Shown: positions 25,636 through 46,810, numbered from the stretch's first letter. The stretch is 64,000 nucleotides of DNA from Candidatus Saccharimonadales bacterium (GCA_038239685.1 JBBSEN010000004.1:8657-72656), one strand, 5' to 3'. The notes: generated by a model from the sequence alone, not told the origin. Numbers and translations are program-made.

Positions 25636-25971
25636 TTACGCTACTTTGCCATCCTTATTATAGATCGCTATGGCTTGTGACGGATCTCGCGCGGCTTCAT
25701 TTAAGGATAGAAGTCTTTGTAGTAATAAGCTGGCATCTTGGTCTTTTTTATATCCGGCCGCGGCTGCCTTAAATAAGGGCCTAGCCCATCGTTTTAACTC
25801 CGGCGCGTAGTATTGTACTAAGTCGTTTGCGTTGTCAGGACCAGGCAGCTCCATATCTTCAAAGGTCTGCTTGACGAGCATTCTGCCCGTAAAAAACAGC
25901 CTGTCCTCCAAAGTAGGTGGGTTTGTCAATTCTTGGACAGCACGCTCCGCCACGGTTATTTTCTCAGACAT
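25636..25971 (-). CDS. Hypothetical protein (111 aa)
   Basis: ORF only. No recognisable motif. Confidence 0.4.
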   Translation of the reverse strand: MSEKITVAERAVQELTNPPTLEDRLFFTGRMLVKQTFEDMELPGPDNANDLVQYYAPELKRWARPLFKAAAAGYKKDQDASLLLQRLLSLNEAARDPSQAIAIYNKDGKVA

Positions 25972-26032
25972 AAAGTTAGAATATCATAAAAAGTAGTATT
26001 TAACAAGCATAACTTCCTAGTGGGCGTACATG

Positions 26033-26199
26033 ATCCTGCCGACGGCTTCTCTAGCGATGGTCGCAGCCCAGCCAACAACAAGGCCGGCGTACTCCTTGCA
26101 GCAATTCGGTGATTGTCCGTTCTATATGATTGCTTCTGGTTTCTGGTCTCTTGTTGGAGATTACCCAGCAAATCCACTCATTACGGGCTAGTGGCGTCA
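26033..26199. repeat. Direct repeat copy A (167 bp), identical at 164 of 167 positions to 41574..41740
   Basis: My hand alignment found three mismatches: a/c, g/c near the left end, and t/a at ggccggcg(t/a)actcc. Confidence 0.9.
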
Positions 26200-26200
26200 T
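26051..26200 (-). pseudogene. Truncated duplicate of the 3' part of the ydeI-like gene (49-codon remnant)
   Basis: It translates as MTPLARNEWICWVISNKRPETRSNHIERTITELLQGVRRPCCWLGCDHR. Apart from a fortuitous ATG in place of the L codon, this matches the last 49 residues of the 83-aa protein at 41592..41843. Confidence 0.7.
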
Positions 26201-26299
26201 AATTCGGCTGGGAACTACGCTCAGCGCATTCCACTAACCTGGCGAAGCTAACTTTAACAATAGGTCTTAGCGCCAATCGGGGTATACTAGCTATAGGTT

Positions 26300-27349
26300 A
26301 TGAAGATTTTGGTAACGGGTGGTGCCGGATACATCGGTTCCCACACCGTTGTTGAGCTTCTTAATAGTCGGCACCAGGTCGTTATTGTCGACAACTTTTC
26401 TAACAGCAGCCCGGGTGTCTTGTCGCGACTGCGGCAACTGACCGGCTGGCAGCCAACACTCTACAAGGGCACAGTCCAGGACCGTCGGCTGCTCCATCGG
26501 ATATTCTCCGAGCATCGTATTGACGCCGTCATGCATTTCGCCGGCCTGAAAGCAGTTGGCGCGTCCATGCAGCAGCCGCTGGAATATTACCGTACCAATA
26601 TCGAAAGCTCACTGGCGCTCTGCGAAGTGATGCGGGCTAATAACGTTAAGAAATTGATCTTCAGTTCTTCGGCGACGGTCTATGGCGATCCCCAAGAGTT
26701 ACCGTTGCGGGAGACCAGCACCGCCGGCTACGACTTGGCCAATCCCTATGGGCGCAGCAAGTATATGGTGGAGCAGATATTGCACGACCTGGCGGCGGCC
26801 GAGACGGGCTGGCAGATTACATTGTTGCGCTATTTTAATCCGATTGGCGCCCATGACAGCGGCCTGATCGGCGAAGATCCGCGCGGCATTCCCAACAATC
26901 TACTACCCTACATTAGCCGCGTCGCTGCCGGCGTCCTGGAGAGGCTCCAGGTATTCGGGAAGGACTATGACACCGTTGACGGCACCGGCGTGCGCGATTA
27001 TATACATGTCGTTGACGTAGCCCAGGGTCACGTGGCCGCCCTAGAGCAATTGCGACCGGCTGACCGCCCGGAAGTTTACAATCTCGGCCGCGGCCGCGGC
27101 ACATCAGTCCTGGAGGTAGTGCGAACCTTCGAGGCAGTGTCCGGCAAAACTATTCCGTATCACGTCACTGGCGCGCGAGCGGGCGATGTCGCCAGCCTGT
27201 ATGCCGATGTCTCGAAGGCGAGGGTCAAGCTTGGCTGGCAGGCCAGCAAAAGTCTGGAAGAGGCCTGCGTCGACGCCTGGCGCTGGCAGTCGCAGCATCC
27301 AGATGGTTTCAGCGGCGTGCGTCGGCCACTTGTAGCGGTGGCTGGGTAG
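26300..27349 (+). CDS. galE: UDP-glucose 4-epimerase
   Basis: MKILVTGGAGYIGSH (GxxGxxG), the YGRSK catalytic YxxxK motif, and full-length GalE-like sequence. Confidence 0.9.
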   Translation: MKILVTGGAGYIGSHTVVELLNSRHQVVIVDNFSNSSPGVLSRLRQLTGWQPTLYKGTVQDRRLLHRIFSEHRIDAVMHFAGLKAVGASMQQPLEYYRTNIESSLALCEVMRANNVKKLIFSSSATVYGDPQELPLRETSTAGYDLANPYGRSKYMVEQILHDLAAAETGWQITLLRYFNPIGAHDSGLIGEDPRGIPNNLLPYISRVAAGVLERLQVFGKDYDTVDGTGVRDYIHVVDVAQGHVAALEQLRPADRPEVYNLGRGRGTSVLEVVRTFEAVSGKTIPYHVTGARAGDVASLYADVSKARVKLGWQASKSLEEACVDAWRWQSQHPDGFSGVRRPLVAVAG

Positions 27350-27358
27350 TTGTATAAT
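27330..27358 (+). promoter_or_regulatory. Putative sigma70-type promoter for the PP-loop gene pair
   Basis: TTGTAG (27330-27335), a 17-nt spacer, then TATAAT (27353-27358) preceded by TG. It lies 37 nt upstream of the ATG at 27396. Confidence 0.4.
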
Positions 27359-27395
27359 TGCTTTTACGATAGGGTGGCTAAACAAGGCATGATGA

Positions 27396-28622
27396 ATGGT
27401 CATTTCAGACGTTGAGCTTACCCGTAATAAGTCCTTTACAACTCTTTCCGCGAAGTGCAAGATCAGAAAAATCGGTTGGGACGAAGTATATTTCAAGGTT
27501 GCTGCCGAACACCAGTCGGATGTCTATGCTGACGCCAGCCCGTTTGCTTCGGCCTTGCTCATCCCCTCCATGCGCCGCGGCGAAGACTTGATTATCAAAG
27601 GCAGCATTTCCCGGCAATTATATGATGGCCTGCAGTCTATCATGGCGGAAGTCCTGGGCTGGGAGATCGGCCTCAAGCCGATTGCTATCAAAGCTGACGC
27701 GCTGGTCAAAGACAGCTACCGGCCGGCCAAGACAGCCACCTTCTTCTCGGGTGGAGTCGATTCCTTCTATACCTACCTCAAGCACACCGCCAAGTCAGCC
27801 ACAGCTGACCGGGTAGACAGCCTGATCTTTGTCAACAACGGCAATGATATTGACCCGCGCAATAAACAGCTGTGGGACAACACCCTTGAGAGCCTGCGCG
27901 AGATTGCCAAGGCCGGCCAGGTTGACCTGGTTGTCGTCGAGAGCAATATCAATTCACTGGAGCTGCTGAACCCTATCGTACCCTGGGATTACATCCACGG
28001 CGGCTGTCTGGCGGCTACCGGCCTGTTCCTACGCGGTGGCTTCCGCCGGATTTATGTGCCTTCTACCCACTCCGTCGCTGAGCAAATTCCTTATGGCTCT
28101 AACCTGGCCTTGGACAATCACTGGAGCACCGAACAGACGGAATTCATACACGATGGCAGCGAGACCACCCGACTGAACAAGGTCGTTAGCCGGATCGCCA
28201 AGTCGCCGATTGCCCTGCGGCATTTGCGAGTCTGCTACATGAACAAAAACGGCGTCTATAACTGCGGCAAATGCGATAAATGCCTGCGCACGATGGTGAA
28301 TCTGTATATTGCTGGCGTGCTCGACAAGTCCCAGACTTTTCCTCACCAGCTGGACCTGCTGCGGATTGCTAGCACACCGACCATCGCCGGCCAGGACCTG
28401 CAGATATTTCACCAGGAAAACCTGGCTGCCCTGCGTGAAACCCATATGGATCCCGGACTGGAAGCGGCCGTGGGCGCCAGCATCGCCTTAACGGTCGGCC
28501 TGAAGCCAGCCACCGTCAGTAAGAAAGTCAGGAATAAAGTCGCCTACCTCGATCACAGCTACTTAAAAGGCTGGCTGTACAGTGGTTATTCGGGCTTATT
28601 CGGCAAGCGGTTCAGCCCATGA
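27396..28622 (+). CDS. Uncharacterised PP-loop (SGGxDS) ATP-pyrophosphatase with a QueC-like Cys cluster, paralogue 1
   Basis: FFSGGVDSFYTYLKH at about residue 107 and LRVCYMNKNGVYNCGKCDKCLRTM. It also has unassigned ~105-aa N-terminal and ~100-aa C-terminal regions. Confidence 0.65.
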   Translation: MVISDVELTRNKSFTTLSAKCKIRKIGWDEVYFKVAAEHQSDVYADASPFASALLIPSMRRGEDLIIKGSISRQLYDGLQSIMAEVLGWEIGLKPIAIKADALVKDSYRPAKTATFFSGGVDSFYTYLKHTAKSATADRVDSLIFVNNGNDIDPRNKQLWDNTLESLREIAKAGQVDLVVVESNINSLELLNPIVPWDYIHGGCLAATGLFLRGGFRRIYVPSTHSVAEQIPYGSNLALDNHWSTEQTEFIHDGSETTRLNKVVSRIAKSPIALRHLRVCYMNKNGVYNCGKCDKCLRTMVNLYIAGVLDKSQTFPHQLDLLRIASTPTIAGQDLQIFHQENLAALRETHMDPGLEAAVGASIALTVGLKPATVSKKVRNKVAYLDHSYLKGWLYSGYSGLFGKRFSP

Positions 28623-29875
28623 TTATTCAGGATGTCCATCTAACGGTGGATCACGAAGCGGCCGTCCTATCCGCCAAGTGCAAGATCAGAAAAATCGGCT
28701 GGGACAGGGTGTATTTGCGGGTCGCTTCCCCAAACAGCGATTATGTCTTTGACGATGCCAGTCCTTTCGCCGCCATGCTGTTGCTGCCGGCCATGAAACA
28801 GGGCGAAGACTTAATTATTAAAGGCAGTATTTCCGAGCAACTGTATAACGGCATGCAGCTCATAATGGATGAAGTTGCCGGCTGGGGCGCCGGCCTGCGG
28901 ACTGTCAGGATTATAGCCGACCAGGTAGTCAAAGACCGGCACCGTCCCAGCCAGACAGCCAGTTTCTTTTCGGGAGGCGTGGATTCTTTCTATACATATT
29001 TAAAGCACAAGCACGACAGCCGTGAAGCCGATCGGGTAGACTGTTTCATCCTGGTGAAGAACTTTGACATTGATATCCAGAACAACGCTCTCTGGGAGAG
29101 CGCTCTCAAGAACGTCCAGGCCGTTGCCGACAAAGAGCATATCGAGCTGGTTGTGGTGGAAACTAATATTCACCAGTTGGTAGAGCCGCTACTGGCTTGG
29201 GATTATGCCCATGGCGGCTGCCTGGCGGCGGTCGGCTTGTTTCTGCGCCGGGCCTTCCGAACGGTTTATATTCCTTCAACGTTTTCCGTCGAAGAACAAA
29301 TCCCCTGGGGCTCGTCGTTAGCGCTAGATAAGCACTGGAGCACCGAATGTACCAGCTTCGTGCATGACGGCAGCGAAGTAACGCGTATCGGTAAGGTCTT
29401 CGCCGAGGTCGCCAAGTCGCCGGTTGCAATGAGCCATCTGCGGGTTTGCTATATGAATAAACGGGGGGCTTACAACTGCGGCAGATGTCCGAAATGCCTG
29501 CGAACCATGATCAGCCTATATGCCGCCGGCGTGTTGGGTAAGGTGGCGACCTTGCCCCACCGGATAGATCCTCAGCACGTGGCTGACATTCCGGCCGCCA
29601 GGAACCAAGGCCGGCAAATACTCGCTGGTGAATACCAGAACCTGGAAGCCTTGCGCCAGCGCCGGCTAAACCCCCGCCTCCAGCAGGCTATTTTGTCGAG
29701 CATCGCCCAGACCAATGCCCGCCAAATCCAACCAGCCTTCAGGCTAAAGTATAAAGTGGCTCGGCTGGCGCAGCGGCTGGTCTATTTCGATCATCTGTAT
29801 TTAAGGGGTTTACTTTACTCGGCGTATAATGGCCTGCTTGGCAAATCGTCCTTCGATTACACTAATTCCCGCTAA
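28619..29875 (+). CDS. Uncharacterised PP-loop (SGGxDS) ATP-pyrophosphatase with a QueC-like Cys cluster, paralogue 2
   Basis: Colinear with paralogue 1 (SAKCKIRKIGWD, GEDLIIKGSIS, FFSGGVDSFYTYLKH, LRVCYMNKRGAYNCGRCPKCLRTM). An ATGA start/stop overlap couples the two genes. Confidence 0.65.
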   Translation: MIIQDVHLTVDHEAAVLSAKCKIRKIGWDRVYLRVASPNSDYVFDDASPFAAMLLLPAMKQGEDLIIKGSISEQLYNGMQLIMDEVAGWGAGLRTVRIIADQVVKDRHRPSQTASFFSGGVDSFYTYLKHKHDSREADRVDCFILVKNFDIDIQNNALWESALKNVQAVADKEHIELVVVETNIHQLVEPLLAWDYAHGGCLAAVGLFLRRAFRTVYIPSTFSVEEQIPWGSSLALDKHWSTECTSFVHDGSEVTRIGKVFAEVAKSPVAMSHLRVCYMNKRGAYNCGRCPKCLRTMISLYAAGVLGKVATLPHRIDPQHVADIPAARNQGRQILAGEYQNLEALRQRRLNPRLQQAILSSIAQTNARQIQPAFRLKYKVARLAQRLVYFDHLYLRGLLYSAYNGLLGKSSFDYTNSR

Positions 29876-31121
29876 TGGCGGTGCGGTAGGCGGCGTAAGC
29901 GGGCTTCGAGCTGCCGTCGTAACGCAGCAAGCCGAAAAAGTTATTAGTATCGCCGGCTGAGGCACCGAGGTCCTGGTAGTTGTACCAAAAGAAACCGCCC
30001 AGCCACGGATCGGTTTTGTACTGTGTAACAGCATCGGTCAGCATGGCGGCCTGCAAGGCTTCGTCGACGTGATCCGGATGAGCGTCATAGTTAAAGTTCG
30101 CGCTGGTCGCCAGCGCGCCTGGCCCGTTCGTCGGCGCGCCGAATTCAGTCGCCCAAACCGGCTTGGCGGCGTCGCCGTAAGCCGTCATGATGGCGCGGAT
30201 ACTGTCGGACACGTCAGCCATGGTTGACCAGCCGCTCCAGCTGGCGACATGCGACGGCGTGGCCGGATAGGCGTAAGGGTGGTAGCCGACGGCGTCAAAG
30301 TAAGCTTTGGCGCCGCTGAGGTACATCGTTCGCAAGAAAGTTTGTTGCGGGAGGCTGAGCGAACTGCCATCCAGCGGGCCCAGTCCGCCGGTTAGTACCA
30401 GGGCGTTCGGATCAACCCGTTTAATAGCCGGATAGCTGGCTTGCAACAGCTGCGTGTAGTCTGACGGGCTTGGGGCTGGCTGCCAGAAGCCTTCTAGGTT
30501 TGGTTCGTTCCATATTTCCCAACTATGGACGCCCAGGGAAGCGTAGCGGCTAGCGGCGGCGGCGGCGAAGGTCGCGAACTGGCCGGGCGAGGCTGGCGCG
30601 CAGCGCTGGCTGGGCGTGCAGGCCGGCAGGCCGGCCCACGCCGGGGTGTAGCCCAAAGTACCTAGTATTTTTAGGCCATGGCTGTTGGCGGCGGCGACAA
30701 TATGGTCCAGCGGACTCCAATCGTACTGCGACGGATTGTCCGGCTGGATACTTGCCCAGGACACATCCACCCGAATCCAGCTGACGCCTAAGCTGGTCAT
30801 GTCGCTCAGTTCGGCATTCAGGCGGGCCGGATTATTCCAGGGTAAGGTCTCGCCCGTGGCCAGCCCGAACGGCTTGGTCAGCTTGACCGGTGCGGGCGGT
30901 GGCGCGGCCGACTTAAAGATGACGGCCGGTTGCTTGGCCTGGGTTCGGACTACCGATATAGGCTTTTTTGGCGCCAGCGCGGCTTTCGGCTCGTGGTGGA
31001 AGACTACTACGAGCGCGATGGCTAGCCCGATAAGGCTTACCAATAAGGCCGGCTGCCACCAGGCTTTCCGGGGTATTCTGCCTTGAATATAATACTTTCT
31101 AACCCTGATATCATCCCTCAA
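29862..31121 (-). CDS. Membrane-anchored clan GH-A glycoside hydrolase (GH5/GH39-like)
   Basis: N-terminal TM, SWEIWNEPN (acid/base Glu in NEP) and VWATEFG (nucleophile Glu). Confidence 0.7.
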   Translation of the reverse strand: MRDDIRVRKYYIQGRIPRKAWWQPALLVSLIGLAIALVVVFHHEPKAALAPKKPISVVRTQAKQPAVIFKSAAPPPAPVKLTKPFGLATGETLPWNNPARLNAELSDMTSLGVSWIRVDVSWASIQPDNPSQYDWSPLDHIVAAANSHGLKILGTLGYTPAWAGLPACTPSQRCAPASPGQFATFAAAAASRYASLGVHSWEIWNEPNLEGFWQPAPSPSDYTQLLQASYPAIKRVDPNALVLTGGLGPLDGSSLSLPQQTFLRTMYLSGAKAYFDAVGYHPYAYPATPSHVASWSGWSTMADVSDSIRAIMTAYGDAAKPVWATEFGAPTNGPGALATSANFNYDAHPDHVDEALQAAMLTDAVTQYKTDPWLGGFFWYNYQDLGASAGDTNNFFGLLRYDGSSKPAYAAYRTAISGN

Positions 31122-31229
31122 ATCCCCCTACCCTAAGAATATTTAAGCATAATAACTGCCAAAAAGCTCGAAAATATCGTATACTACCCCTTTAGATTAA
31201 GGGGTGCGGAGAAAGGTTAAGGCCGGAGC

Positions 31230-32498
31230 TTGAAAGCCACCGCCAGAGCGCTTGCCAGTGAAACCCTGTTTCGCAACTCTTTTTATCTGATATTCACCAC
31301 CGGGACGATGGCTGCCTTTGGTTTTGTATTCTGGGTGATAGTGGCCCGCCTCTACCAGCCGGCCCAACTCGGGGTAGCCTCCACTCTGATATCGTCCATG
31401 AATTTTATCGCTTACTTGAGCCTGCTGGGTTTTAACAGCACTTTCGTGCGTTTCCTGCCCCAGTCACGCAACCGCGACGAGCATATCAATACCGGACTGA
31501 TCCTGGTAACCGGCGCCGCCCTGTTGAGCGGTGGCTTGTTCGCGGTCCTGGCCCCACTCTTTGCGCCCAAGCTCGGCATCTTGCACCAGAGTATCTGGTT
31601 TGAACTAGGTTTCGTAGCGCTGTGCGTCGGCGCGGCGGTCAATCTAGTGACCGACAGCATTTTCGTGGCTTACCGTGCAGCTGGCTACAATCTCCTGGTT
31701 GACGGCTTGCTAGCCAGTAGCATCCAGTTGCTCCTGCCGGCCGTTTTAATCGGCTTGGGCGCCTATGGTATATACGCGGCGCAAGGTTCGGCGGTCTTTG
31801 TCGCCATGCTGGTCAGCCTGCTCTTTTTGATTAAAAAATTCCAGTACCGACCGGCTCTTAAGCTGAACCATCAGGTTTGGCAGGAAGTGAAACAGTATTC
31901 ATTTGGAAATTACGCTGGTAATTTGTTTAATACTCTGCCGAGCATCCTAGTGCCGATTATCGTTCTCAACAAGCTCGGGGCGGCCCCGGCCGGTTACTAT
32001 TACCTGGCCTTTATGATGGCCAATTTGCTGTTCGCGATCGCCTACGGCGTTACCCAGTCGCTCTTCGCCGAAGGCTCGTACGAGGAGCGACAGCTTTGGC
32101 TGTTAGTCAAGCGGGCCGCCGCCCTACTGGCCGTGCTGGTAATTCCGGCCAGCCTGATCCTGGTCGTTGTCGGACCGTTTATCTTAGATGTTTTCGGCCG
32201 AAATTACGGCCTGCACGCCAGACAGGTGTTGTTGGTCCTAGCCGCCGCCGCGCCTTTTACGGCGGCGTGCGCGCTCGGCACCGTCACGCTGCGTATTACC
32301 AAGCACGTCGGCTCCATCCTGCTCATTAACGTGTTCTACGCGTTGATCATTTGCGGCCTGGCCTTCGCCTGGGCGCCAAGGGGATTGGCCTGGGTAGGCG
32401 GCGCCTGGCTGAGCGGCCAGGTTTTGACGGCGGTTATTATTTTTGCGGTCTTGGGCTTTCAGCATCGTCGGCACTGGAACGCTCGTAGGCTTGCTTAA
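31230..32498 (+). CDS. Wzx-like polysaccharide flippase (MOP superfamily)
   Basis: 422 aa with about 12 to 14 TM helices. TTG start. It lies within the glycan cassette. Confidence 0.65.
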   Translation: MKATARALASETLFRNSFYLIFTTGTMAAFGFVFWVIVARLYQPAQLGVASTLISSMNFIAYLSLLGFNSTFVRFLPQSRNRDEHINTGLILVTGAALLSGGLFAVLAPLFAPKLGILHQSIWFELGFVALCVGAAVNLVTDSIFVAYRAAGYNLLVDGLLASSIQLLLPAVLIGLGAYGIYAAQGSAVFVAMLVSLLFLIKKFQYRPALKLNHQVWQEVKQYSFGNYAGNLFNTLPSILVPIIVLNKLGAAPAGYYYLAFMMANLLFAIAYGVTQSLFAEGSYEERQLWLLVKRAAALLAVLVIPASLILVVVGPFILDVFGRNYGLHARQVLLVLAAAAPFTAACALGTVTLRITKHVGSILLINVFYALIICGLAFAWAPRGLAWVGGAWLSGQVLTAVIIFAVLGFQHRRHWNARRLA

Positions 32499-33726
32499 TA
32501 ATCTCGGCCGCTCGGTGCGCCTTGTCAACATAAGCCGGTATAACCGTTTGCAGCTGACGGACGTAAGCCTGACGTTGCTCAACTAGGTGTGCGAACAACC
32601 GGGCCAGCCCATCCGTCGTGACATCTTCCATGTCGATAACCCATTTTTCCAGGCCGAGGTCCTGCATAATGCCGCTGGTTTTATGTTCGTACTCGATAGC
32701 AATTACCGGCACGCCGGCCGACAGGGCAAATATAACCGAATGAAAGCGGGTACCGACCAGATAATCCAAGTCTGTTATGACCAATTTTATGGCGCGATAA
32801 TCTAAGCGTTCCAAGAAGGTTACCTGCTCGTTACCTTTTAACAGCCGGGCCAACCGTTGGCCGACCAGTCGGTCGTCATCATCGTGGTGCTCGGAAGTTA
32901 CCTGGGCGATAACTACGACATTTAAATCGCCGCTACGCGTGATCCGGCTAATGAAGCCGGCCATGGCCTGTTCGTATTCGGCCTGGGCCGCCGGCGGCAG
33001 CCAGGCGCGGACGGTTAGGCCAACAACTTGACTGCCTGTGGTCGGGCCCACCAGCTGGCTGGGCCGGGGCTGACGTGGTGGTTTAAATAGGAACGCACTG
33101 TCCGGGACCTGGGTAATAAGTGGTGCCGTCAAACCTAAGCCGGCTAGCAGCTGGGCGGATCGGGCCTCCCGGACTAGGATTAAATCGACGCGGCGAAGAC
33201 CGGCCACGGCAATGCGTCTTTGGATTTTTTTGGGATACGGGCCGAACGACTGGGCATATAAGTAGACCGGTTTTTTCAGCAGTTTAGCCAGCCATATTTG
33301 ATGGAAGAGTAACAGTAAGATGACGGTACTGCTATGGTCGTCTTTGGCCCGCAGGTAGCCGCCGCCGACACAGACTTGCAGGTCGGCCGCCGCCAGCAGC
33401 CGCAGCGGCTGGCGCCAGGCACGGGGCAACGGCAAAGCCAGCCTGGTCAGGCGCAACGTGATTACCCAGAGCACGGTATAAGCCATCATGCTCCAAGCTA
33501 GCAGCAGTTTGGTCAGCTTATGATTCGATGGCGAAACGGCGCCATACATCAGGGCTTTAACAACCGGTACGCCGTCAAATTTGTAATCAGCCCTGATATT
33601 GTCAACCGACAGTACACTGAGCTCCGGGTGGTGAAATACCCGTTTTAGTTCGCTGATTTGGGCCGATAGTATGGCGGCGTCACCGGCGTTATGGCTGGAA
33701 TAAACGTGCGAGATTAAGATTTTCAC
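32437..33726 (-). CDS. Polysaccharide pyruvyl transferase family protein (CsaB/WcaK-like)
   Basis: MKILISHVYSSHNAGDAAILSAQISEL N-terminus and a C-terminal TRFHSVIFALSAGVP motif, both typical of PS_pyruv_trans. Its 3' end overlaps the convergent flippase by 62 nt. Confidence 0.7.
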   Translation of the reverse strand: MKILISHVYSSHNAGDAAILSAQISELKRVFHHPELSVLSVDNIRADYKFDGVPVVKALMYGAVSPSNHKLTKLLLAWSMMAYTVLWVITLRLTRLALPLPRAWRQPLRLLAAADLQVCVGGGYLRAKDDHSSTVILLLLFHQIWLAKLLKKPVYLYAQSFGPYPKKIQRRIAVAGLRRVDLILVREARSAQLLAGLGLTAPLITQVPDSAFLFKPPRQPRPSQLVGPTTGSQVVGLTVRAWLPPAAQAEYEQAMAGFISRITRSGDLNVVVIAQVTSEHHDDDDRLVGQRLARLLKGNEQVTFLERLDYRAIKLVITDLDYLVGTRFHSVIFALSAGVPVIAIEYEHKTSGIMQDLGLEKWVIDMEDVTTDGLARLFAHLVEQRQAYVRQLQTVIPAYVDKAHRAAEIIKQAYERSSADDAESPRPQK

Positions 33727-36700
33727 CGGTAGATCTCCGTTGCGCCATTGCTATAGAGCAGGTTTTTTTGCTGGTCGAGTAGGGCCGTCGGGTAACTGTA
33801 GGTTATTAGGTCCCCATTGTAGGCGACCGTGGATTGGCGTTTGGTAACATTGGAATAACCCAGGATGACATAGGTGCCCTGCCTGATAAGGCTTGGGAAA
33901 ATATTGTTAGTGGCATCTATATCCGAATAGTTCATCAGTTTATTAAACATATACTGGTCGGCTTGGACCTCCGGGGCCGGCTTGGTATGGCTAGCATGGG
34001 CGGTGCGGTCGAGCCAATCAACACCAGCTATTTCTTGGGCATGGGTATAGTAGATATCATAATAGGTGCCGGAGTTATTTAAATTAAGCTGGGCGGAATA
34101 GCCCCCCAGGGCTTGTGTAATCACACCTGTCGAAGACAGGAAGAACAGTATTGCTAGCAGCACCGGTAGGCCGAGTTTGAGTAGTCGGGTCGGCAGCCAG
34201 GCGAACAGGGCCAGGCTGCCCAGCACGGTAAATACCCCGAGTAGCATCAGCGATTGCTGGAAAGCCCGTAGTAAACCATATTGGACCGACAGTACCGGCA
34301 AGACGACTTGCAGGGCCACGAACACCATGCTGCCAATCGACAAGCTGATAAAGTCATTGTCGAGCAGGCGGCCGTAGCTTGGCCGCGCCAGTACGTAGAT
34401 AAAGCCTGATATGACTAGAATTTGTAATAGTTTGGCAGAACCCTGCCGCATGGCCTGGTTAAAGGCGGCGACGTCCAGTCCCCTGCTTTCCAGGCTCCGG
34501 CCCAGCCGGGTCAAAGGTTGGGTTTTTACCGGGACGAGCTTGACTGGATAATGTTTATAGTCGGCCGCCGGGTAGTAGGCGCCCGGATCCTTGGCCCGGG
34601 TAATGTCGGCGACGCTTTTGACATAGCTATTCAGTTCCTCGGCCGGTGATGCTGATTTCGAAGAAAACAGGTTGTAGCTGGTGTCGTTTGATTTCGGCTC
34701 TTCTTGGCGGAAACTACTGCCGATGGCACTAAAGGTCTGTTTGATGACCAGGCTGGTGTTACTGCCGGTGTGGGTCAGCACTGTCGTCCACCAAAAGCTG
34801 GCAAAAGCCAGGCTGACGACCATCAGCAGGCTGATTCGTTTCAGGTGGGAGGCCCGGACGCGGAGGGTCGCCAGCGGCCGGTTGGCTAGCAGCCGCCGTC
34901 GGCCCAGCCAATCACTGGTTTTCAGCAGGACCGGCCAAGCGACGGCCGCCATAAACAGGATGGCTATGATCGAGTAGGTTGTGGAGTAGTGGGATAGGAC
35001 TAAGCCCAGCCCGAACGCCATGAAGAGGCCTCGGCGCAGTTTAAGGACTAGCTGGTCCTGGAATAGTACATAAAACATCAGCGCCGCGAAGATGAAGGCG
35101 ATCTCCTGGCGGTTCAGAAACGGCAGGTCGGTAAAAAAGGTCGGGAAAGCCATAAAGTAGAGCGTTGCCAAAAAGGCTATTGCGACCGACAGCCATTTGC
35201 GCACTAGTAGGTAAATAATGGCCGGGCAAAACGCGAAGATTACTTGGAAGAGCACCTTATAAACGTAGGGGTCCAAGACTTTCAAAAGGTTGGCGAACAT
35301 CGTCGGCAAAATGGTCAGGCTCAAGCAGGCGTTGTAGGGGTCGCGGAAATCCTGGATTCGCCAAACGCCACTCGTCTTGGCCAGTTGGAAGACATGGTAT
35401 TCCAACTGGATGTCACTACCTGAGGTATACCAGCTGCGCAAGGAGGTCATCAGCAGCAAGGCCAGCGACATCAGGGTAATGGCAGCGGCGACGCTGGTAT
35501 CGCCGAGCCGGCGGCTTTTGGCCAGCAGCAGCCAGCTAAAGCCGGCCATACCGATCAGCATAACCATCGTCCAGGCGTTGGCTCCACCGTTGTTGAGACT
35601 GGTTGCCCCGAGGATACTCAGTACGACAAGGCCGAGTGGCGCGACCGCAACCTGGCGCTCCAGCCGTGTCGGCAGTAATTCTCGGAGCTTGGCGCGCGGG
35701 TTGAGCCGCCAGCCTTTGGCGCGCCACCAAGCTACGATTAGCAATACTGCCAATGAGGCGCTGATTTCCCAAACTAGATAGCTGGCGTCAAGCGGACGGC
35801 TGGTGCCGGCCAATTGCAACAGCGTGTTACCGAGCAAGCCAATTAGCAGCAATTCCAGCAAGCTGAAGCCGATGGCCAGGACCAACTTGCCCCAGGCCGC
35901 CAGCTGGTTAAGGCGCAGGCTGATAACCGTCAGCATGCCAGGTACCAGTGTCAAAAAACTAAAACCGACAGTGTCGGTGAGCACGGCCGGCAAGCCATGC
36001 GCGGCCCGTAAGCCGAGGAATAGTAACCACCAGCCGATCACACCGGTCGCCAAACCGAACCTGGTAATAGCGCGAGCCGGTTTTTGCAGGACCGGGCTCT
36101 CGTAGAGTGCCGTTAGTTGTTCGGCCAGCTGCCGCCAGGAATGTCCGGCCGCCATGTCGCGTCCGGCTTGCGATAACAAGGGGAGCTGCGTTTTCCGCTG
36201 CTCATAAAAGTCATCAATAGCCGTGGCGAAGGAGCTGGGCGATGGTTTTTTGACGAGTATGCCGTTGCCGCCAGCCAGATGTTCGCGGATACCCTGGACG
36301 TCCGAGCCGATAACCGGCAAACCGGCCGCCATGGCCTCCAGTAGGACCAGCGGCATGCCCTCTTTGTCGGACGGCAGGACGAAGACGTCGGCTTGTTCAT
36401 AAGCTCGTAATAACTCATCGCCGGCCAGCGTGCCGTGGAAGGTGATATTTTGCAAGCCGTGTTCCTCGGCGAGGGCCTGTAATTTGGCGCGGTCTTCACC
36501 GTCGCCGATAATAGCCAGCTGCACGTCGGCCGCCGTTTTAGTAAGTGCCTCAATCAGCCGGTCAACCCGTTTTTGGATGCTCAGCCGGCCGACATATAGC
36601 AGCCGCAGCGGCGTGTGCGCTTCCCTGTCTTTGGCGCCGATGTCCAGGAATTTTTGGGCGACGCCGTTGGGCAAGAAACTAACTTTGGCGGCGCTGATGT

Positions 36701-37232
36701 GGTAGCGGTGCTGGATCATGGCGGCCTGTTCCGGTGACAACGCGATAACCTGGTCCGCGCCGCGCATAATGACAGGTTGGACGAAGCGTTTGTAGAGCAC
36801 GAATAAGAAGCCTAAACGCCCGGACGGTTCGGCGTCTAGATGAAAATGAACGACGTAGGGAATGCGCCGCAGCTTGGCTGACAGCCAGACCATTTCCGGC
36901 AGGTAGGCCTGCGATAAGTGGAGATGAAATATAGCCGGCTTTTTGACGCGCAGCAAGCACCACAAGAGAGCTGGCATGAAGGGCGTATGGGCGAATTCAA
37001 AAGTTCGCAAGCGGCTAAGTTTATAGGGAATTTTGTGATCTTCAGCGAACGGGTTGGCGGCGTCAATACTGGATGTGATGACCTCGACCGGCCAGCCGGC
37101 CTCGGCCAGCGCCGAACTTATTTCTTGAGCAACCACTTCCATGCCGCCCAAATGCGGCGGGTAGTAGCCAACGATTTGGATGATAGTCGGTTTAGGTGCG
37201 GCCGTTTCGTCTGGCGGCGCGGGTTTACTCAT
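33723..37232 (-). CDS. Fusion protein (1169 aa): N-terminal GT4 glycosyltransferase plus a large polytopic membrane domain (polymerase/GT-C-like)
   Basis: Residues ~15-385 are GT4 (DKEGMPLVLLEAMAAGLPVIGSDV). Residues ~390-1169 hold many TM helices and a C-terminal soluble part. Confidence 0.75.
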   Translation of the reverse strand: MSKPAPPDETAAPKPTIIQIVGYYPPHLGGMEVVAQEISSALAEAGWPVEVITSSIDAANPFAEDHKIPYKLSRLRTFEFAHTPFMPALLWCLLRVKKPAIFHLHLSQAYLPEMVWLSAKLRRIPYVVHFHLDAEPSGRLGFLFVLYKRFVQPVIMRGADQVIALSPEQAAMIQHRYHISAAKVSFLPNGVAQKFLDIGAKDREAHTPLRLLYVGRLSIQKRVDRLIEALTKTAADVQLAIIGDGEDRAKLQALAEEHGLQNITFHGTLAGDELLRAYEQADVFVLPSDKEGMPLVLLEAMAAGLPVIGSDVQGIREHLAGGNGILVKKPSPSSFATAIDDFYEQRKTQLPLLSQAGRDMAAGHSWRQLAEQLTALYESPVLQKPARAITRFGLATGVIGWWLLFLGLRAAHGLPAVLTDTVGFSFLTLVPGMLTVISLRLNQLAAWGKLVLAIGFSLLELLLIGLLGNTLLQLAGTSRPLDASYLVWEISASLAVLLIVAWWRAKGWRLNPRAKLRELLPTRLERQVAVAPLGLVVLSILGATSLNNGGANAWTMVMLIGMAGFSWLLLAKSRRLGDTSVAAAITLMSLALLLMTSLRSWYTSGSDIQLEYHVFQLAKTSGVWRIQDFRDPYNACLSLTILPTMFANLLKVLDPYVYKVLFQVIFAFCPAIIYLLVRKWLSVAIAFLATLYFMAFPTFFTDLPFLNRQEIAFIFAALMFYVLFQDQLVLKLRRGLFMAFGLGLVLSHYSTTYSIIAILFMAAVAWPVLLKTSDWLGRRRLLANRPLATLRVRASHLKRISLLMVVSLAFASFWWTTVLTHTGSNTSLVIKQTFSAIGSSFRQEEPKSNDTSYNLFSSKSASPAEELNSYVKSVADITRAKDPGAYYPAADYKHYPVKLVPVKTQPLTRLGRSLESRGLDVAAFNQAMRQGSAKLLQILVISGFIYVLARPSYGRLLDNDFISLSIGSMVFVALQVVLPVLSVQYGLLRAFQQSLMLLGVFTVLGSLALFAWLPTRLLKLGLPVLLAILFFLSSTGVITQALGGYSAQLNLNNSGTYYDIYYTHAQEIAGVDWLDRTAHASHTKPAPEVQADQYMFNKLMNYSDIDATNNIFPSLIRQGTYVILGYSNVTKRQSTVAYNGDLITYSYPTALLDQQKNLLYSNGATEIYR

Positions 37233-37245
37233 AGGAAGTCCCTAG

Positions 37246-39078
37246 TTAAAGTTTCCCCGTCCGCAGCAGGGCGTCCGTTTTTTGTGCCTGGCTGTGCCAG
37301 CTGAAAGCTTGGGTGGCTTTGTGCCGGCCTTGGGCCCCCAGCCTTTCAGCGATCGCCGGGTGAGCCAGCAGGTAGGACAGCTTATCGGCTAAAGCGCGGC
37401 TATCGGCCGGAGGCACCAGGTAGCCGGTGCTGCCTTCGTCCACTAGCTGCGGCAGGCTGCCGACCGTCGTCGCGATAACAGGCAGGCCAGCCGCCATGGC
37501 TTCCAGGGTAACCATCGAAAAACTGTCGTTTAACGACGGCAGCACGAATATGGCCGCCTCCTGGAAGCTGTGCTGCAGCCTGGCACCGGTCTGGCCGCCC
37601 CTGAAAGTGATCTGCTTGCCGAGGCCCAGCTGTTGCACCAAGGTCTCGAAGCCGGGGCGCCCGGATCCCGAACCGACGATGGTAAGCCGGGCATCGGGGT
37701 GGCCCTGACTGACATGGCGAAAGGCCTCAAGCAAGTAGCGCAGACCTTTGTGCGTATCTGACTTATTAAGACTGCCGACGAACAGAATGGATTGCGGCGT
37801 TCGCCTTGCGGCCGGCTTGAAGAAGTCGCTATCAACGCCGGGCGTAATCGTCCGTGATTTGCCGAGATATGACTTGAGGAAATCATCGCGTACGCTGTCT
37901 GAAGCGCATATGATGCTTTCGGCTTTCTCTAGTGTCCTGGGGAGAACATAGCGTTCATAGGGTCGGATCAGCCAGTCGGCCGGTACTTGGCCTTTCTTCA
38001 TGCTTAACATGTGATAGGTGACCACCACAGGCAGCCGGCCGGCGACCCACGCCGCGATGTCGGCGAACAAAGGCACCGGCGCGTGGGCGTTGACGGTGTA
38101 GATGTCTTCACGCTTGATGATGCGGCGCAACCACCAGCCGGTCAGCGGATGCAGCGGCGTATTGGATAATTTGAGAAGATACGGCAGGCGGTAGACGACT
38201 AATCCCTTATAGCTGGTCTGAGCCAACTTCCAGCCCCGCTCTCCAGAGGTGGCGACGCGGACTTCCCAGCCATCATCGCGCTGCAGCCCTTGGGCAATGT
38301 GGAAGGCATAGTTTTCCTGTCCGCCCAAGTGCGGCGGGAAGTACGGCGCCGCCAGTAGTAGCCGTTTAGGACGGAACTCAACTAGCCCGCCATTACTGAC
38401 GTACTGGACATGTGGCCGACGAGCGATATATTGGAAGACGTCTTGCAGTTTTTGCCAATCGTTATGGGCGTCTATTTCCCAGGAATGTCCCCATAGGTGA
38501 TAGACGCCACCCTCGGCCAGTACGCGGTCAAACATGGCCTTGGCCAAGTTGTCCCACTGCCGGTAACGCCAGGCCCGCCGGGGGTTGAATTGAGCGAAGC
38601 GGAGTATCCGCCAGGCGTCTTGGTAATGATTATAGGCGTGGATGGTGGTCGCCGCTTCGAATAGAGAGGCCTTGAGGTCAAATGAATGTCGCCGAACAGT
38701 ACGGGCGTAGCGCAGGCCGGCCCGACGGACCATGGCCACGTGCTTTGGTTGATAATTCCCGCCCGGATAGCAAAAGCTGGTTACCTGCTTGCCGGTCATT
38801 GCTTCCAAGCGCAATTTGGAATCTAGAACTTCCCGGTAAGCGCTATCGTCGGGAATTTTCGGCAGGCGGGGATGGGTCATGGTATGGGCACCGATCTCAA
38901 ACGAACGGCTCAAAGTCTTGACTTGCTGAGCCGTTAAGCGGTCGGACGGCGCTAATTCCTGGTTCTGTGGCGCGATATAGAAGGTTCCAGCCAGGCCGTA
39001 TTGCTGTAGCAGCTGGGCCAGCCGCACGTCCAGCTTGTGGCCGTCATCCCAACTGGTAGTCACGATGACCAGTTTCAT
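37246..39078 (-). CDS. Fusion protein (610 aa): N-terminal NodB-type polysaccharide deacetylase (CE4) plus a C-terminal GT4 glycosyltransferase
   Basis: VIVTTSWDDGHKLDVRLAQLLQQYGLAGTFYI and IGAHTMTHP (NodB motifs). The C-terminal part carries LNDSFSMVTLEAMAAGLPVIATTVGS (GT4). Confidence 0.75.
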   Translation of the reverse strand: MKLVIVTTSWDDGHKLDVRLAQLLQQYGLAGTFYIAPQNQELAPSDRLTAQQVKTLSRSFEIGAHTMTHPRLPKIPDDSAYREVLDSKLRLEAMTGKQVTSFCYPGGNYQPKHVAMVRRAGLRYARTVRRHSFDLKASLFEAATTIHAYNHYQDAWRILRFAQFNPRRAWRYRQWDNLAKAMFDRVLAEGGVYHLWGHSWEIDAHNDWQKLQDVFQYIARRPHVQYVSNGGLVEFRPKRLLLAAPYFPPHLGGQENYAFHIAQGLQRDDGWEVRVATSGERGWKLAQTSYKGLVVYRLPYLLKLSNTPLHPLTGWWLRRIIKREDIYTVNAHAPVPLFADIAAWVAGRLPVVVTYHMLSMKKGQVPADWLIRPYERYVLPRTLEKAESIICASDSVRDDFLKSYLGKSRTITPGVDSDFFKPAARRTPQSILFVGSLNKSDTHKGLRYLLEAFRHVSQGHPDARLTIVGSGSGRPGFETLVQQLGLGKQITFRGGQTGARLQHSFQEAAIFVLPSLNDSFSMVTLEAMAAGLPVIATTVGSLPQLVDEGSTGYLVPPADSRALADKLSYLLAHPAIAERLGAQGRHKATQAFSWHSQAQKTDALLRTGKL

Positions 39079-40217
39079 GAGCTAACCTCCGGCAATAAAC
39101 CGGCGTAAATTTGATCGAGCTCACGGGCGACCTGCGGCCAGCTAAAGTGGCGCCGAACATAGTCCCGCGAATGGTTAGCCATGCGCCGGCGACGCGCCCC
39201 GTCATCGACTAGCTCTAGAATGGCCTGCCGGATAGCATCCGAAGACGGACGGTTGGCGAGCAGGTAGACAAATTCCTGGTCCAGCTTATAGGCGTCGTAG
39301 CCGTCATCATAAGACATGATGACTGGCAGGCCACTGGCCATGGCCTCTTGAATGACGAGCGGAAAGCCTTCGCCATAGGCCGGCAGTACAAAAATATCCG
39401 CCGCCCGGTAGATTTCCGCCAATTGCGGCTGAGACAGCTGACCCAGAAAGCGTACCTGTGACGATTCGGCCTGACTCGCCTGACCGCCCACGAATACCAG
39501 CTGGTAACGTTTATTCTTAGCGGCCAGTACCTTGTCAAAACCCTTCTTGATCGCGGCCCGGCCGACGAAAAGGATTATTTTCCGGTTTTCAACTAAGTCA
39601 TATTTTTGGCGGATTAATTGTTTTTCTAACGGCTTGGCTGGCCGGAATAGCTTGTCGTCAACGCCGTTGAAGATGAGCCGGATTTTGCGGCCACTAATGC
39701 CTCGGGCCAGCAAGAATGAACCAATGCGCTCGTTGAGAATGATAATGGTCGCGCTACAGCGGAAGACCATGGCGCCGGCCGTAGCGTATACCAGCCGCTG
39801 CAGCCAGCGGACCAGCCGGCTAGGGTGCGGCACCAGGTCCACGTGTTGGGTTAGGACGACCGGCCGTCCGTAGAGGCGGGCCAGGATGGCGGCGCACCAC
39901 GACGATATATAGAAGGCGTCATGAATATGTACTACCTCGGCCCGCCGGATTTCCCGACGCAGGCTAATCAGCAAACTTGGTGAAAAAATCGGAAACGGCA
40001 CGCCCCACCGCTCAAAGCCGTTAAAGGCGGGGACGCGGACAATGGTCGCCGATTTGTCCTGGCTGCAAGGCTTGTCGGCCAAAATCCGGCTGGTGAGGAC
40101 TGTTACGCTGTCGCCAAGCGCGGCCAGCGCTTTGGCTTGATTCTGGGCGACATATTCTATGCCGCCCGCATGCGGCGGATAGTAATGGGTTACGATCAGG
40201 ATTTTTTTAGCTTTCAC
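39075..40217 (-). CDS. Family 4 (GT-B) glycosyltransferase
   Basis: ILIVTHYYPPHAGGIEYV N-terminus and YGEGFPLVIQEAMASGLPVI. Confidence 0.8.
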   Translation of the reverse strand: MKAKKILIVTHYYPPHAGGIEYVAQNQAKALAALGDSVTVLTSRILADKPCSQDKSATIVRVPAFNGFERWGVPFPIFSPSLLISLRREIRRAEVVHIHDAFYISSWCAAILARLYGRPVVLTQHVDLVPHPSRLVRWLQRLVYATAGAMVFRCSATIIILNERIGSFLLARGISGRKIRLIFNGVDDKLFRPAKPLEKQLIRQKYDLVENRKIILFVGRAAIKKGFDKVLAAKNKRYQLVFVGGQASQAESSQVRFLGQLSQPQLAEIYRAADIFVLPAYGEGFPLVIQEAMASGLPVIMSYDDGYDAYKLDQEFVYLLANRPSSDAIRQAILELVDDGARRRRMANHSRDYVRRHFSWPQVARELDQIYAGLLPEVSS

Positions 40218-40253
40218 CGCGATAATAATTTAAAGTTCTACCGTTCCTGCCGT

Positions 40254-41006
40254 TTATTCCGAATCTTTCGGCACGGGCCGCCAGGTCATCGGCGTCGTGG
40301 TGGAAGCGTTAGTTCGGATCCTATGGCGCAGGGCGAAGCGCTTCTTAAAAAGTTCGGAAAAGGTCCGCCAAGCGTCAAAAACGGATAGCTTTTCATGGCC
40401 GACACGTTTGCTGTAGGTGATTGGTACTTCGGCGCAGCGAAAGCCGCCGACGTAGGCGTCTATTTTTATTTCCTGCGAGAACGGCATGCCAGGGTGTTTG
40501 CTATCCAGTCTCTGCCAAATGGACCGGCGAAAAATCCACATGCCCGATTGCGAATCCTTAAATGGCGCCCGGAACAAAAGATGCATGATGAAACTCAGGA
40601 TATAGTTGCCAATAATATGCGACCGGGACATAGCGGCCCGATTTAGCCTAGTGAGGCGGTCGGTCGTGACAAAGTCGAGGTCAGCCTGGTTGAAAGCGGC
40701 CAGAATGGCGGGCACCGCCGCGAAAGGATATGTCATATCGGCGTCGCCGGAAATAATAATATCGCCGGTGGCCGCGGCAAAGCCGGCTTGGTAGGCGTTG
40801 CCGTAGCCGCGGCGCGGCTGACTGATAACCCGGGCGCCGCGTTGACGGGCGATCTCGGCCGTGCGGTCAGTCGAATTATTGTCCACGACTAGCTTTTCAA
40901 TCGTGTAGCCGGCCGCCATCAGTTCAGTCACCGGAATGCTATCAAGCGTTGGGCCAATGCCGGTTTCTTCATCATAGGCCGGGATAACGAAGCTTAGCGA
41001 GGTCAT
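40254..41006 (-). CDS. Family 2 glycosyltransferase (DPM1/polyprenyl-phosphate sugar synthase-like, soluble form)
   Basis: LSFVIPAYDEETGIGPTLDSI...VVDNNSTDRTAEIA...SGDADMTYP. Confidence 0.75.
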   Translation of the reverse strand: MTSLSFVIPAYDEETGIGPTLDSIPVTELMAAGYTIEKLVVDNNSTDRTAEIARQRGARVISQPRRGYGNAYQAGFAAATGDIIISGDADMTYPFAAVPAILAAFNQADLDFVTTDRLTRLNRAAMSRSHIIGNYILSFIMHLLFRAPFKDSQSGMWIFRRSIWQRLDSKHPGMPFSQEIKIDAYVGGFRCAEVPITYSKRVGHEKLSVFDAWRTFSELFKKRFALRHRIRTNASTTTPMTWRPVPKDSE

Positions 41007-41458
41007 GACGCGCCCACTAACCAGAAGTGTATGGCTTCCGGCTGGTTTAACAACATGACGCTGACTTCGCCGCGACCGGCAAAGTTCGGTAGTGTCGTAG
41101 CGGCGGCGATCCGTGTCGTTTCCCCGGCTGGCAAGGAGAGTTGTCGCCGGTCTAGTATTGTGGTCTGGCCCGATGGCGCCGTAAAAACCGCCTTATAGGT
41201 ATAGGTCATGTCCCGGGCCTCGGCGTTGCGAATGGTGAAGCTAAAGGCTAATGATTTTTGACTAGCCGCGGTCGTGGGCAAACTATTCGGGTTTGTAAAA
41301 TAAAGTTCCGTGAAGCGCTCCGGCTGGTGCGTCGTGGCTTTTATGAGTAGTTGGCTGTGGCCCAGCCAATTGGCCGCCAAGACGACGCCAATCAACAACA
41401 TAATGACTCCCAGTAGGAATACACTCTTGGTAAAGGTTGTGGCGTTCCGAAGGATCAT
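41003..41458 (-). CDS. Membrane-anchored hypothetical protein (151 aa)
   Basis: One N-terminal TM helix. The rest is likely extracytoplasmic and beta-rich. It is translationally coupled to the GT2. Confidence 0.5.
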   Translation of the reverse strand: MILRNATTFTKSVFLLGVIMLLIGVVLAANWLGHSQLLIKATTHQPERFTELYFTNPNSLPTTAASQKSLAFSFTIRNAEARDMTYTYKAVFTAPSGQTTILDRRQLSLPAGETTRIAAATTLPNFAGRGEVSVMLLNQPEAIHFWLVGAS

Positions 41459-41573
41459 TCATTTCCTGAATCCCCCACCACTTTATAGTTGTCTACCCAA
41501 AACTGATACCCATCTATCGTTTCTTCTGTCAATTTAGCACACTTAAGGGGTGGGTATCAAGACGCAGGCCAAT

Positions 41574-41740
41574 ATCCTGCCGCCGCCTTCTCTAGCGATG
41601 GTCGCAGCCCAGCCAACAACAAGGCCGGCGAACTCCTTGCAGCAATTCGGTGATTGTCCGTTCTATATGATTGCTTCTGGTTTCTGGTCTCTTGTTGGAG
41701 ATTACCCAGCAAATCCACTCATTACGGGCTAGTGGCGTCA
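41574..41740. repeat. Direct repeat copy B (167 bp), partner of 26033..26199
   Basis: It covers the last 149 nt of the intact ydeI-like gene plus 18 nt downstream of it. Confidence 0.9.
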
Positions 41741-41843
41741 GGTCCTCCCACCTTTCAAGGGCAGATTCATCAGACACCAGGGCTTTACGTAAGTCGGCCG
41801 GTACTTCATGCACCACGCCAGCGGCAATTGCTGCTTTAGTCAT
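41592..41843 (-). CDS. YdeI/OmpD-associated (OmdA) family protein
   Basis: VPADLRKALVSDESALERWEDLTPLARNEWICWVISNKRPETRSNHIERTITEL matches my memory of the YdeI/OmdA domain pattern (...eTR..Ri...i..L). Confidence 0.6.
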   Translation of the reverse strand: MTKAAIAAGVVHEVPADLRKALVSDESALERWEDLTPLARNEWICWVISNKRPETRSNHIERTITELLQGVRRPCCWLGCDHR

Positions 41844-41886
41844 AATTAAACTATATCAAATAACTAAGCACTCTTCTCAAAATGCT

Positions 41887-41923
41887 CTGCTCAGCCCCTA
41901 GTAGACGTACTTCGCAACTTTAG
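41887..41923. repeat. Copy 1 of a ~36-nt intergenic motif
   Basis: ctgctcagcccctagtagacgtacttcgcaactttag. It aligns with the copies at 44942 and 46030. Confidence 0.55.
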
Positions 41924-41942
41924 TGAAGGAGCGGCTCATATT

Positions 41943-46782: not shown

Positions 46783-46810
46783 TTGGCTCCGGGGACTGGA
46801 TTCGAACCAG
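46783..46810. repeat. 28-bp duplicate of the 3' end of tRNA-Asn (att-like)
   Basis: ttggctccggggactggattcgaaccag is identical to 47930..47957, the 3' acceptor strand plus part of the T-arm of the tRNA-Asn gene. Confidence 0.85.

Follow-up and report, generated by a model that had tools for sequence, protein, structure and literature searches.

A 64,000-nucleotide stretch of the genome of a Candidatus Saccharimonadales bacterium (GCA_038239685.1, JBBSEN010000004.1:8657-72656; hereafter the window) carries a 15.4-kb cassette of surface-glycan genes between 2 nearly identical 167-bp direct repeats, both corresponding to the 3' end of a small OmdA/YdeI-family gene, ydeI. The polarity of the insertion, established by comparison with an uninterrupted relative, is a new result of this work: one repeat copy (copy A) is the displaced native 3' end of ydeI, and the other (copy B) is the incoming end, which completes the gene. 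We give about an even chance to the reading that the repeat is the scar of a homology-driven, single-crossover (Campbell-type) insertion of DNA from a close relative. Judging from its sequence, the cassette is now an ordinary, intact, host-adapted glycan locus without mobility genes of its own. The features that define the repeat pair are the following:

26033..26199, minus strand, copy A, an orphan 3' fragment of ydeI (149 nt of coding sequence and an 18-nt tail; alignment and frame check)
41574..41740, minus strand, copy B, the incoming replica of the ydeI 3' end, which makes the gene complete and adjoins the cassette end
41592..41843, minus strand, intact OmdA/YdeI-family gene of 83 aa (Pfam PF13376, E 5e-19)

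The 2 copies align without gaps and are identical at 164 of 167 positions. Copy B comprises the final 149 nt of ydeI plus the 18 nt past its stop codon, and copy A, translated in the same frame, yields 49 C-terminal residues identical to those of YdeI but is recognizable as an orphan fragment because the frame directly upstream is full of stop codons. Of the 3 mismatches between the copies, those at repeat positions 10 and 13 belong to the 18-nt non-coding tail and the one at position 58 is synonymous, and the translations of the copies are identical; if mismatches were placed uniformly over the 167 nt, at least 2 of the 3 would land in the tail with P ~0.03. A perfect block of 109 nt is shared by the copies (26091-26199 and 41632-41740), and the homology borders are sharp at both ends of the repeat, with no similarity past either of them. 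The pair is the only long near-identical repeat family in searches over 20 kb and over the whole window, the other family in the 64 kb being a diverged paralog pair at 27.4/28.7 kb; because the repeat is unique apart from these paralogs, a chance origin is excluded. The preliminary description of this DNA had reported the repeat at these positions, the composition of copy B, the orphan state of copy A and 11 glycan genes in between, and gapless alignment, translation and Pfam searches bear out all of these, the pair of PP-loop genes among the 11 being recognized by motif and lacking a family match. The junction of the cassette with copy A also creates an in-frame ATG and with it a 49-aa open reading frame (ORF) at 26051-26200 on the minus strand (MTPLARNEW...CDHR), with no obvious ribosome-binding site ahead of it.

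The closest ortholog of ydeI, at locus L003/L001 of our collection of relatives, is 83% identical over the gene at the nucleotide level, and at that locus the gene runs uninterrupted, contiguous with the spacer on either side. An empty site reconstructed from 41942..41741, one repeat copy and 26032..25950 aligns with L003 over its whole length, beginning in the ydeI promoter region, passing through the gene and the tail, and finishing at the start codon of the gene that follows. The flanks were compared by local alignments with shuffle controls. The DNA following copy A is similar to the ydeI-downstream spacer of L003 (p ~0.0015), as is the region upstream of ydeI in the window to the upstream region in L003 (p < 0.0005), whereas the DNA following copy B, that is, the cassette end, has no similarity to the L003 downstream spacer (p = 0.92). 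A MAFFT alignment had hinted that the cassette end weakly resembles the native spacer, but this resemblance was rejected, as it failed this shuffle test. Since the L003 spacer matches the flank of copy A only, copy A is the native ydeI 3' end, and copy B is the one that arrived with the cassette. Two further features follow from this comparison:

25972..26032, minus strand, native ydeI-downstream spacer, homologous to the L003 spacer and holding GTACGCCCACTAGG at 26016-26029
25636..25971, minus strand, 111-aa ORFan gene, located directly downstream of ydeI in the reconstructed empty site

No homologs of the 111-aa protein were found.

The cassette shows no trace of a mobile element of its own. 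Pfam searches of the 11 cassette genes and nearly all large ORFs of the window revealed no integrase, recombinase, transposase or phage domains, and a TnsD match of 13 bits, against a cut-off of 32, was treated as chance. The absence of an integrase, recombinase or transposase inside the cassette, noted earlier, is thus confirmed and extended over the 64-kb window. The spacers between the repeats and the first and last cassette genes measure only 100 and 115 nt and, therefore, leave no room for an integrase remnant. Features of a composite transposon or insertion sequence are also lacking, there being no transposase domain and no inverted repeats at the cassette ends, and to our knowledge a duplication of 167 bp far exceeds any known target-site duplication. 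A foreign composition of the cassette was considered and rejected: its GC content (0.54-0.61), the GC content at third codon positions (GC3; 0.62-0.72) and its tetranucleotide usage match those of host core genes (ATP synthase, SmpB). More atypical than the cassette are its immediate right flank, a small Fic islet and part of another glycan cluster (8.6-14.2 kb), both described below.

YdeI homologs at 75-90% identity come overwhelmingly from metagenome-assembled genomes (MAGs) of Candidatus Saccharibacteria/Saccharimonadales. A genome scan with YdeI returned 80 loci, none of them from the same species and the best with 89% amino acid identity. Exact-protein look-ups for YdeI, the 111-aa protein and the protein of a nearby CMAS gene gave no match, likely because contigs assembled with k=31 break inside ydeI and because of a single-nucleotide polymorphism (SNP) in CMAS; no metagenome contig contained the exact 27-nt core pattern, and a metagenome scan with the 1169-aa GT4 fusion protein of the cassette confirmed no relative. 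The search for an empty site that had been suggested for this locus therefore found none in a conspecific genome but did find the uninterrupted, 83%-identical L003. According to tblastn searches with window proteins, a block upstream of ydeI is conserved; it extends from w51626 through a GH42-like gene to SmpB and is followed, after a few kb, by ydeI in the same orientation. The SmpB/GH42-like-ydeI block is present in L007, L019, L022, L025 and L078 and, inverted, in L021 and L027. In all loci carrying the block synteny ends at ydeI, which identifies the gene as the edge of a conserved block beside a variable region. Only in L007 is a CMAS gene (61% amino acid identity) found past ydeI, at a distance of 4 kb and with the relative orientation that it has in the window; 6 small unrelated genes and no glycan cassette lie in between. 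YdeI/OmdA itself (83 aa; loci L030-L082) is unusually conserved, with 75-90% identity within Saccharibacteria compared to 40-70% for neighboring genes, and homologs 65-71% identical to it occur in many soil MAGs of Acidobacteriota (Acidoferrales/Terriglobia), which suggests that the gene has been exchanged between phyla.

The relatives give no sign that ydeI is a recurrent integration site. A second ydeI fragment was found in none of 82 loci searched within 10 kb, a range from which islands >10 kb would escape. In 38 relatives, the 116 ORFs located just past ydeI include no recurring integrase family; this covers the 25 commonest of 91 families, so a single occurrence of an integrase is still possible. 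The commonest families in this position are a methyltransferase fold of the 3-demethylubiquinone type and sortase. No relative of ydeI was confirmed in the IMG/VR viral contigs. Homologous glycan modules, at 45-72% amino acid identity, are present in the Saccharibacteria contigs L084/L085, L087 and L089/L090; they share the DUF1616, GT2, GT4, deacetylase-GT4, GT4-DUF2206, pyruvyl transferase and flippase genes, with or without the GH5 and PP-loop genes. In L084, L087 and L089/L090, each module stands in a different chromosomal context, without ydeI and without flanking repeats. On this comparative evidence, the module is a lineage-typical locus of variable position and not obviously foreign cargo.

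Whichever enzyme was at work, one reciprocal crossover accounts for the structure. Under the Campbell-type reading, the incoming DNA, either circular or anchored at one end, would have carried ydeI codons 35-83, the 18-nt tail and the cassette. A single reciprocal crossover inside ydeI would then place the 15.4-kb cassette between ydeI and the gene formerly next to it, with the incoming copy B completing the gene and the native 3' end, copy A, pushed 15.5 kb off but still joined to its native spacer and the 111-aa gene. RecA would act here on a circularized or one-end-anchored fragment from a sibling strain, plausibly acquired by uptake of free DNA. We infer the circular or anchored intermediate, the sibling-strain donor, the involvement of RecA and the possible deletion discussed below. 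What is observed on the side of the donor is host-like GC3 and tetranucleotide usage, and differences between the copies that are silent or non-coding; protein, genome and metagenome searches found no donor genome. We favor a homology-driven event because the copies share 98% identity and a perfect block of 109 nt and differ only silently or outside the coding sequence, because the cargo is host-like, with neither a recombinase nor space for one, and ydeI shows no sign of recurrent use as an attachment (att) site in relatives, and because single-crossover duplications of 109-950 bp have precedent: a circle carrying part of a gene end recombines with the chromosome in a single crossover, leaving duplications of this size on both sides of the insert (PMC3240628). 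A mismatch pattern that is silent or non-coding throughout would be expected of 2 functional alleles from sibling strains.

Several points weigh against a homology-driven origin. The route requires one more rare event, either illegitimate circularization or an illegitimate joint falling precisely at codon 35. A replaced 3' gene end is the hallmark of integrase-borne elements, and the window contains a second att-like islet without an integrase, at a tRNA-Asn gene, which would mean that site-specific integration followed by decay happens in this genome. The argument from the mismatch pattern draws on 3 sites only, and neither recA nor the gene sets of the RecA pathway and of DNA uptake lie within the window. 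Finally, no conspecific genome beyond the source is present in the collections, and the empty site, the donor arrangement (ydeI followed by the cassette without copy A) and the excision product were not seen.

Under the Campbell-type reading, the repeats would allow a single kind of rearrangement, a possible rare RecA-dependent deletion with irreversible loss of the whole pathway. Such a deletion would leave a normal junction between ydeI and the 111-aa gene and an unchanged YdeI protein. The locus offers a clean, polarized scar of the gain of an entire pathway, located where a conserved synteny block ends, and thanks to the 3 diagnostic SNPs excision or deletion is directly testable in existing reads.

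The repeat was also followed in Logan, an independent k=31 assembly of run SRR24807096. For the 1169-aa GT4 fusion, the protein collection contains a single entry at 100% identity, which derives from an 87.7-kb NCBI contig and from Logan, and contig searches found the locus in one sample only. Three Logan contigs cover the region: L092 ends at 26075, L083 covers 26170-41616, with 0 mismatches to the window across the cassette, and L086 begins at 41711. At every break, the contig runs on for exactly 30 nt (k-1) after the last base by which the copies can be distinguished, namely the outer borders and position 13; the reads therefore contain the 2-copy repeat. In these contigs the left flank goes with the A variants and the DUF1616 end of the cassette with the B variants, and across the 109-nt core a k=31 graph is blind, the integrated form being indistinguishable there from an empty site plus a circle. 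These data bear on the view that the arrangement is an assembly artefact, in which an empty chromosomal site and a separate circle, or a mixture of strains, were joined by an assembler that threaded the loop into the chromosome. At small k the flank-repeat-loop graph is indeed identical for the 2 forms, the Logan contigs stop at the repeat, and the sample shows some heterogeneity in the form of an SNP at 24903. However, the copies differ at 3 positions, and each set of variants is tied to its own outer sequence in an independent assembly; the perfect core is just 109 nt, which 150-nt reads or k>=111 would span; and a 15.5-kb circle without a replication gene is unlikely to persist. We therefore hold an artefact to be highly improbable. 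At 24903, within the CMAS gene, the window and the Logan contig of that run differ by a single base, which points to strain heterogeneity in the sample or to a difference in consensus.

The main rival account, which we regard as possible, though on balance doubtful, is an integrase-mediated island of the e14/icd type, resembling a cis-mobilizable element (CIME), in which the recombinase acted in trans or was lost, the repeats are attL and attR, and the attP of the element mimics the ydeI 3' end; a cognate integrase might then still be able to excise the cassette. The preliminary description had likewise seen attL/attR geometry here and proposed an old island that had lost its integrase. The geometry stands, together with the polarity derived from L003, and both match e14, where icd has the same layout; both homology borders are sharp, and the 28-nt perfect repeat of the tRNA-Asn 3' end brackets a Fic gene, again with no integrase, in the same window. 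The definition of CIMEs covers elements with attL/attR kept and integration and transfer genes lost (PMC5704250), and a recombinase might recognize the gene-internal end of the repeat, which resembles a motif flanking the empty-site ydeI on either side. The integrase itself, however, gains no support. No integrase, excisionase or remnant is present, and the terminal spacers of 100 and 115 nt are too short to have held one; the cargo is purely a glycan operon set of host-like composition; the homologous cassettes of L084, L087 and L089/L090 have neither flanking repeats nor ydeI; ydeI is no recurrent att site across the 82 loci, 38 relatives and viral contigs; and 98% identity is above what is expected for an attP replica carried for long.

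The other explanation offered in the preliminary description, a cassette poised for RecA-mediated loop-out, would make the repeats a programmed on/off switch that loops the glycan genes out and back in reversible phase variation, which we find quite improbable. At 167 bp and with a 109-nt perfect block, the repeat has the length that RecA-dependent recombination requires, so its standing as a plausible RecA substrate is retained; ydeI would survive the deletion intact, with its protein product unchanged, and deletion of a capsule gene between flanking repeats is known from Vibrio vulnificus (PMC7247339). Positive support for switching is nonetheless lacking: the excised circle has no replication or integration function, and because it can neither replicate nor re-integrate by itself, loss would be one-way. 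The homologous cassettes of relatives have no such repeats, the repeat is already explained as a by-product of insertion, and k=31 contigs cannot separate recombinant from parental junctions. Duplication of ydeI in place, with 2 full paralogs once flanking the cassette and a later deletion removing one 5' half, would likewise leave a 3' fragment beside the 111-aa gene. It requires at least 2 unrelated events, however, none of the 82 related loci has 2 ydeI copies, and a native downstream spacer after the orphan together with a native upstream region at the intact gene is the outcome of a single crossover; we consider this duplication highly unlikely. Saccharibacteria are naturally competent and integrase-poor. 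A bolder proposal, to our minds very improbable, is that whole glycan cassettes shuttle between strains without any dedicated recombinase, by RecA loop-out of circles at a duplicated fragment of ydeI as a highly conserved landing pad, uptake by neighboring cells and single-crossover re-insertion into the same gene; if true, surface glycans would be swapped reversibly at the population level.

Between the copies lie 11 intact genes, with families confirmed by Pfam for all but the 2 paralogs:

26300..27349, plus strand, GalE-type NAD-dependent epimerase, the first cassette gene (Pfam)
27396..29875, plus strand, 2 tandem paralogs of 408 and 418 aa, 57% identical (SGGVDS PP-loop motif and CxxCxxC motif)
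29862..31121, minus strand, GH5-like glycoside hydrolase (Pfam)
31230..32498, plus strand, Wzx-type polysaccharide flippase (Pfam)
32437..33726, minus strand, polysaccharide pyruvyl transferase (Pfam)
33723..37232, minus strand, fusion of a GT4 glycosyltransferase with a DUF2206 membrane domain, 1169 aa (Pfam)
37246..39078, minus strand, polysaccharide deacetylase-GT4 fusion (Pfam)
39075..40217, minus strand, GT4 glycosyltransferase (Pfam)
40254..41006, minus strand, GT2 glycosyltransferase (Pfam)
41003..41458, minus strand, DUF1616-like small membrane protein, the last cassette gene (Pfam)
41531-41560, minus strand, promoter-like site inside the cassette end

The tandem paralogs (27396-29875) had no match above threshold in Pfam, NCBIfam and PDB sequence searches; below threshold, they match QueC and HUP, and their CxxCxxC motif is QueC-like. 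They are kept in homologous cassettes (59-60% identity in L084). An AlphaFold2 model of a PP-loop paralog, built from a 2-sequence alignment, was unusable (predicted local distance difference test, pLDDT, 33). The pair looks like an uncharacterized family of glycan-modifying ATP-pyrophosphatases. Surface glycans probably affect host attachment and phage escape of the ultrasmall, epibiotic Saccharibacteria, and the gain and loss of surface-glycan loci in Patescibacteria are poorly documented.

A 14-nt motif recurs around ydeI, its second copy in the window being the following:

41897..41910, minus strand, motif GTACGYCYACTAGG, second copy, 54 nt upstream of the ydeI start

The window contains exactly 2 copies of GTACGYCYACTAGG (0.06 expected), at 41897-41910 and at 26016-26029, both on the minus strand, the latter 3 nt beyond copy A. 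There, a -10-like box lies between GTACGCCCACTAGG (26016-26029, minus strand) and the 111-aa gene. In a longer form (GTTGCGAAGTACGTCYACTAGG..GAGC), the ydeI-upstream spacer of the window and the ydeI-downstream spacer of L003 agree at 27 of 30 positions. The motif brackets the empty-site ydeI in the window and its closest relatives (L003 at 10289-10302; L004 at 387, 1438 and 1797), and in L004 copies of 42 nt (38/42) stand on both sides of ydeI, with a third copy 1 kb upstream. A start codon always follows ~40-60 nt downstream of it, after a -10-like box, and because of this constant placement the motif is probably a promoter or operator element shared by neighboring small genes. That ydeI itself is a mini-cassette between direct repeats was set aside, as the placement of the motif and the 3 copies in L004 fit a promoter or operator more simply. 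The gene-internal end of the 167-bp repeat, ACGCCACTAG, is found only in the 2 repeat copies and resembles the motif with a 1-nt deletion. The repeat unit thus runs almost from one motif-like site to another, a post hoc observation; motif-like sequence at both ends of the unit could conceivably mark a novel recombination site.

The second att-like islet of the window lies at a tRNA gene:

47930-48004, minus strand, tRNA-Asn(GTT)

Its 3' end recurs 1.1 kb from the tRNA as a perfect direct repeat of 28 nt (46783-46810 and 47929-47956), and the interval, a stretch of low GC content (GC3 0.38), holds only a 71-aa ORF and a Fic/DOC gene (47079-47681). By its layout, this looks like the attL/attR remnant of a tRNA-targeting element without an integrase. 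Elsewhere in the window, a second glycan cluster (8632-19806) encodes a 1244-aa protein containing a carbohydrate-binding module (CBM), followed by GT4, methyltransferase, GT2, GT2, GT4, GT2 and flippase genes. Its distal part (8.6-14.2 kb) has a GC content of 0.38-0.41 and a GC3 of 0.33-0.40 compared to ~0.55-0.60 for the genome, which suggests that it is recently foreign. A 58-nt inverted repeat (517-574 and 5170-5227, 84% complementary) lies in the Gly/Asn-rich coding repeats of 2 ORFs, which flank a sortase (2823-3446) and an LPXTG-anchored protein (3465-4037).

Among known systems, the e14 element of Escherichia coli K-12 comes close in layout. At that locus, which we checked, the last 165 nt of icd lie inside the 15.2-kb element, and a 165-nt orphan, icdC, lies at its far end; the homology begins in the gene, ends just past the stop codon and is ~93% identical. 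Loss of e14 recombines icd with icdC (PMC13626634). In both cases an element is located between a gene and its orphan 3' fragment and an element-borne replica completes the gene, the sizes are comparable (165 nt and 15.2 kb in e14, 167 nt and 15.4 kb here), and the homologous segment extends from within the gene to shortly beyond the stop codon. Unlike the cassette, however, e14 encodes IntE, XisE and phage genes; its replica is ~93% identical with amino acid changes, compared to 98% and none here; and the cargo described here is a host-like glycan locus. CIMEs, which retain attL/attR after loss of their integration and transfer genes, are known from the integrative and conjugative or integrative and mobilizable elements (ICEs and IMEs) of Firmicutes, and share with the present locus direct repeats that include the 3' end of a protein-coding gene and the lack of integration and transfer genes (PMC5704250). 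CIMEs are, by contrast, known by a cognate ICE or IME at the same att site, and none was found near ydeI in relatives and viral contigs; the cassette also shows nothing like decayed ICE content. In Vibrio vulnificus, recombination between repeats in the group 1 capsular polysaccharide (CPS) operon produces an irreversible acapsular variant (PMC7247339). Direct repeats flank glycan genes in both organisms, but in V. vulnificus short tandem octamers flank 1 gene (wzb) and the deletion variant is known, whereas here a 167-bp pair flanks an 11-gene locus and no such variant was seen. Campbell insertion of a circle with a partial gene end, as in the laboratory integration of suicide vectors and in single crossovers during E. 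coli conjugation, produces the same flanking duplication with one copy completing the gene and the other left as an orphan; the precedent concerns engineered plasmids (PMC3240628), whereas the locus described here is a natural 15.4-kb chromosomal cassette for which circularization or anchoring is inferred. The class of mechanism is already textbook, whether Campbell insertion or e14-like replacement of a gene end, and the ydeI locus provides a worked example of it rather than a new principle.

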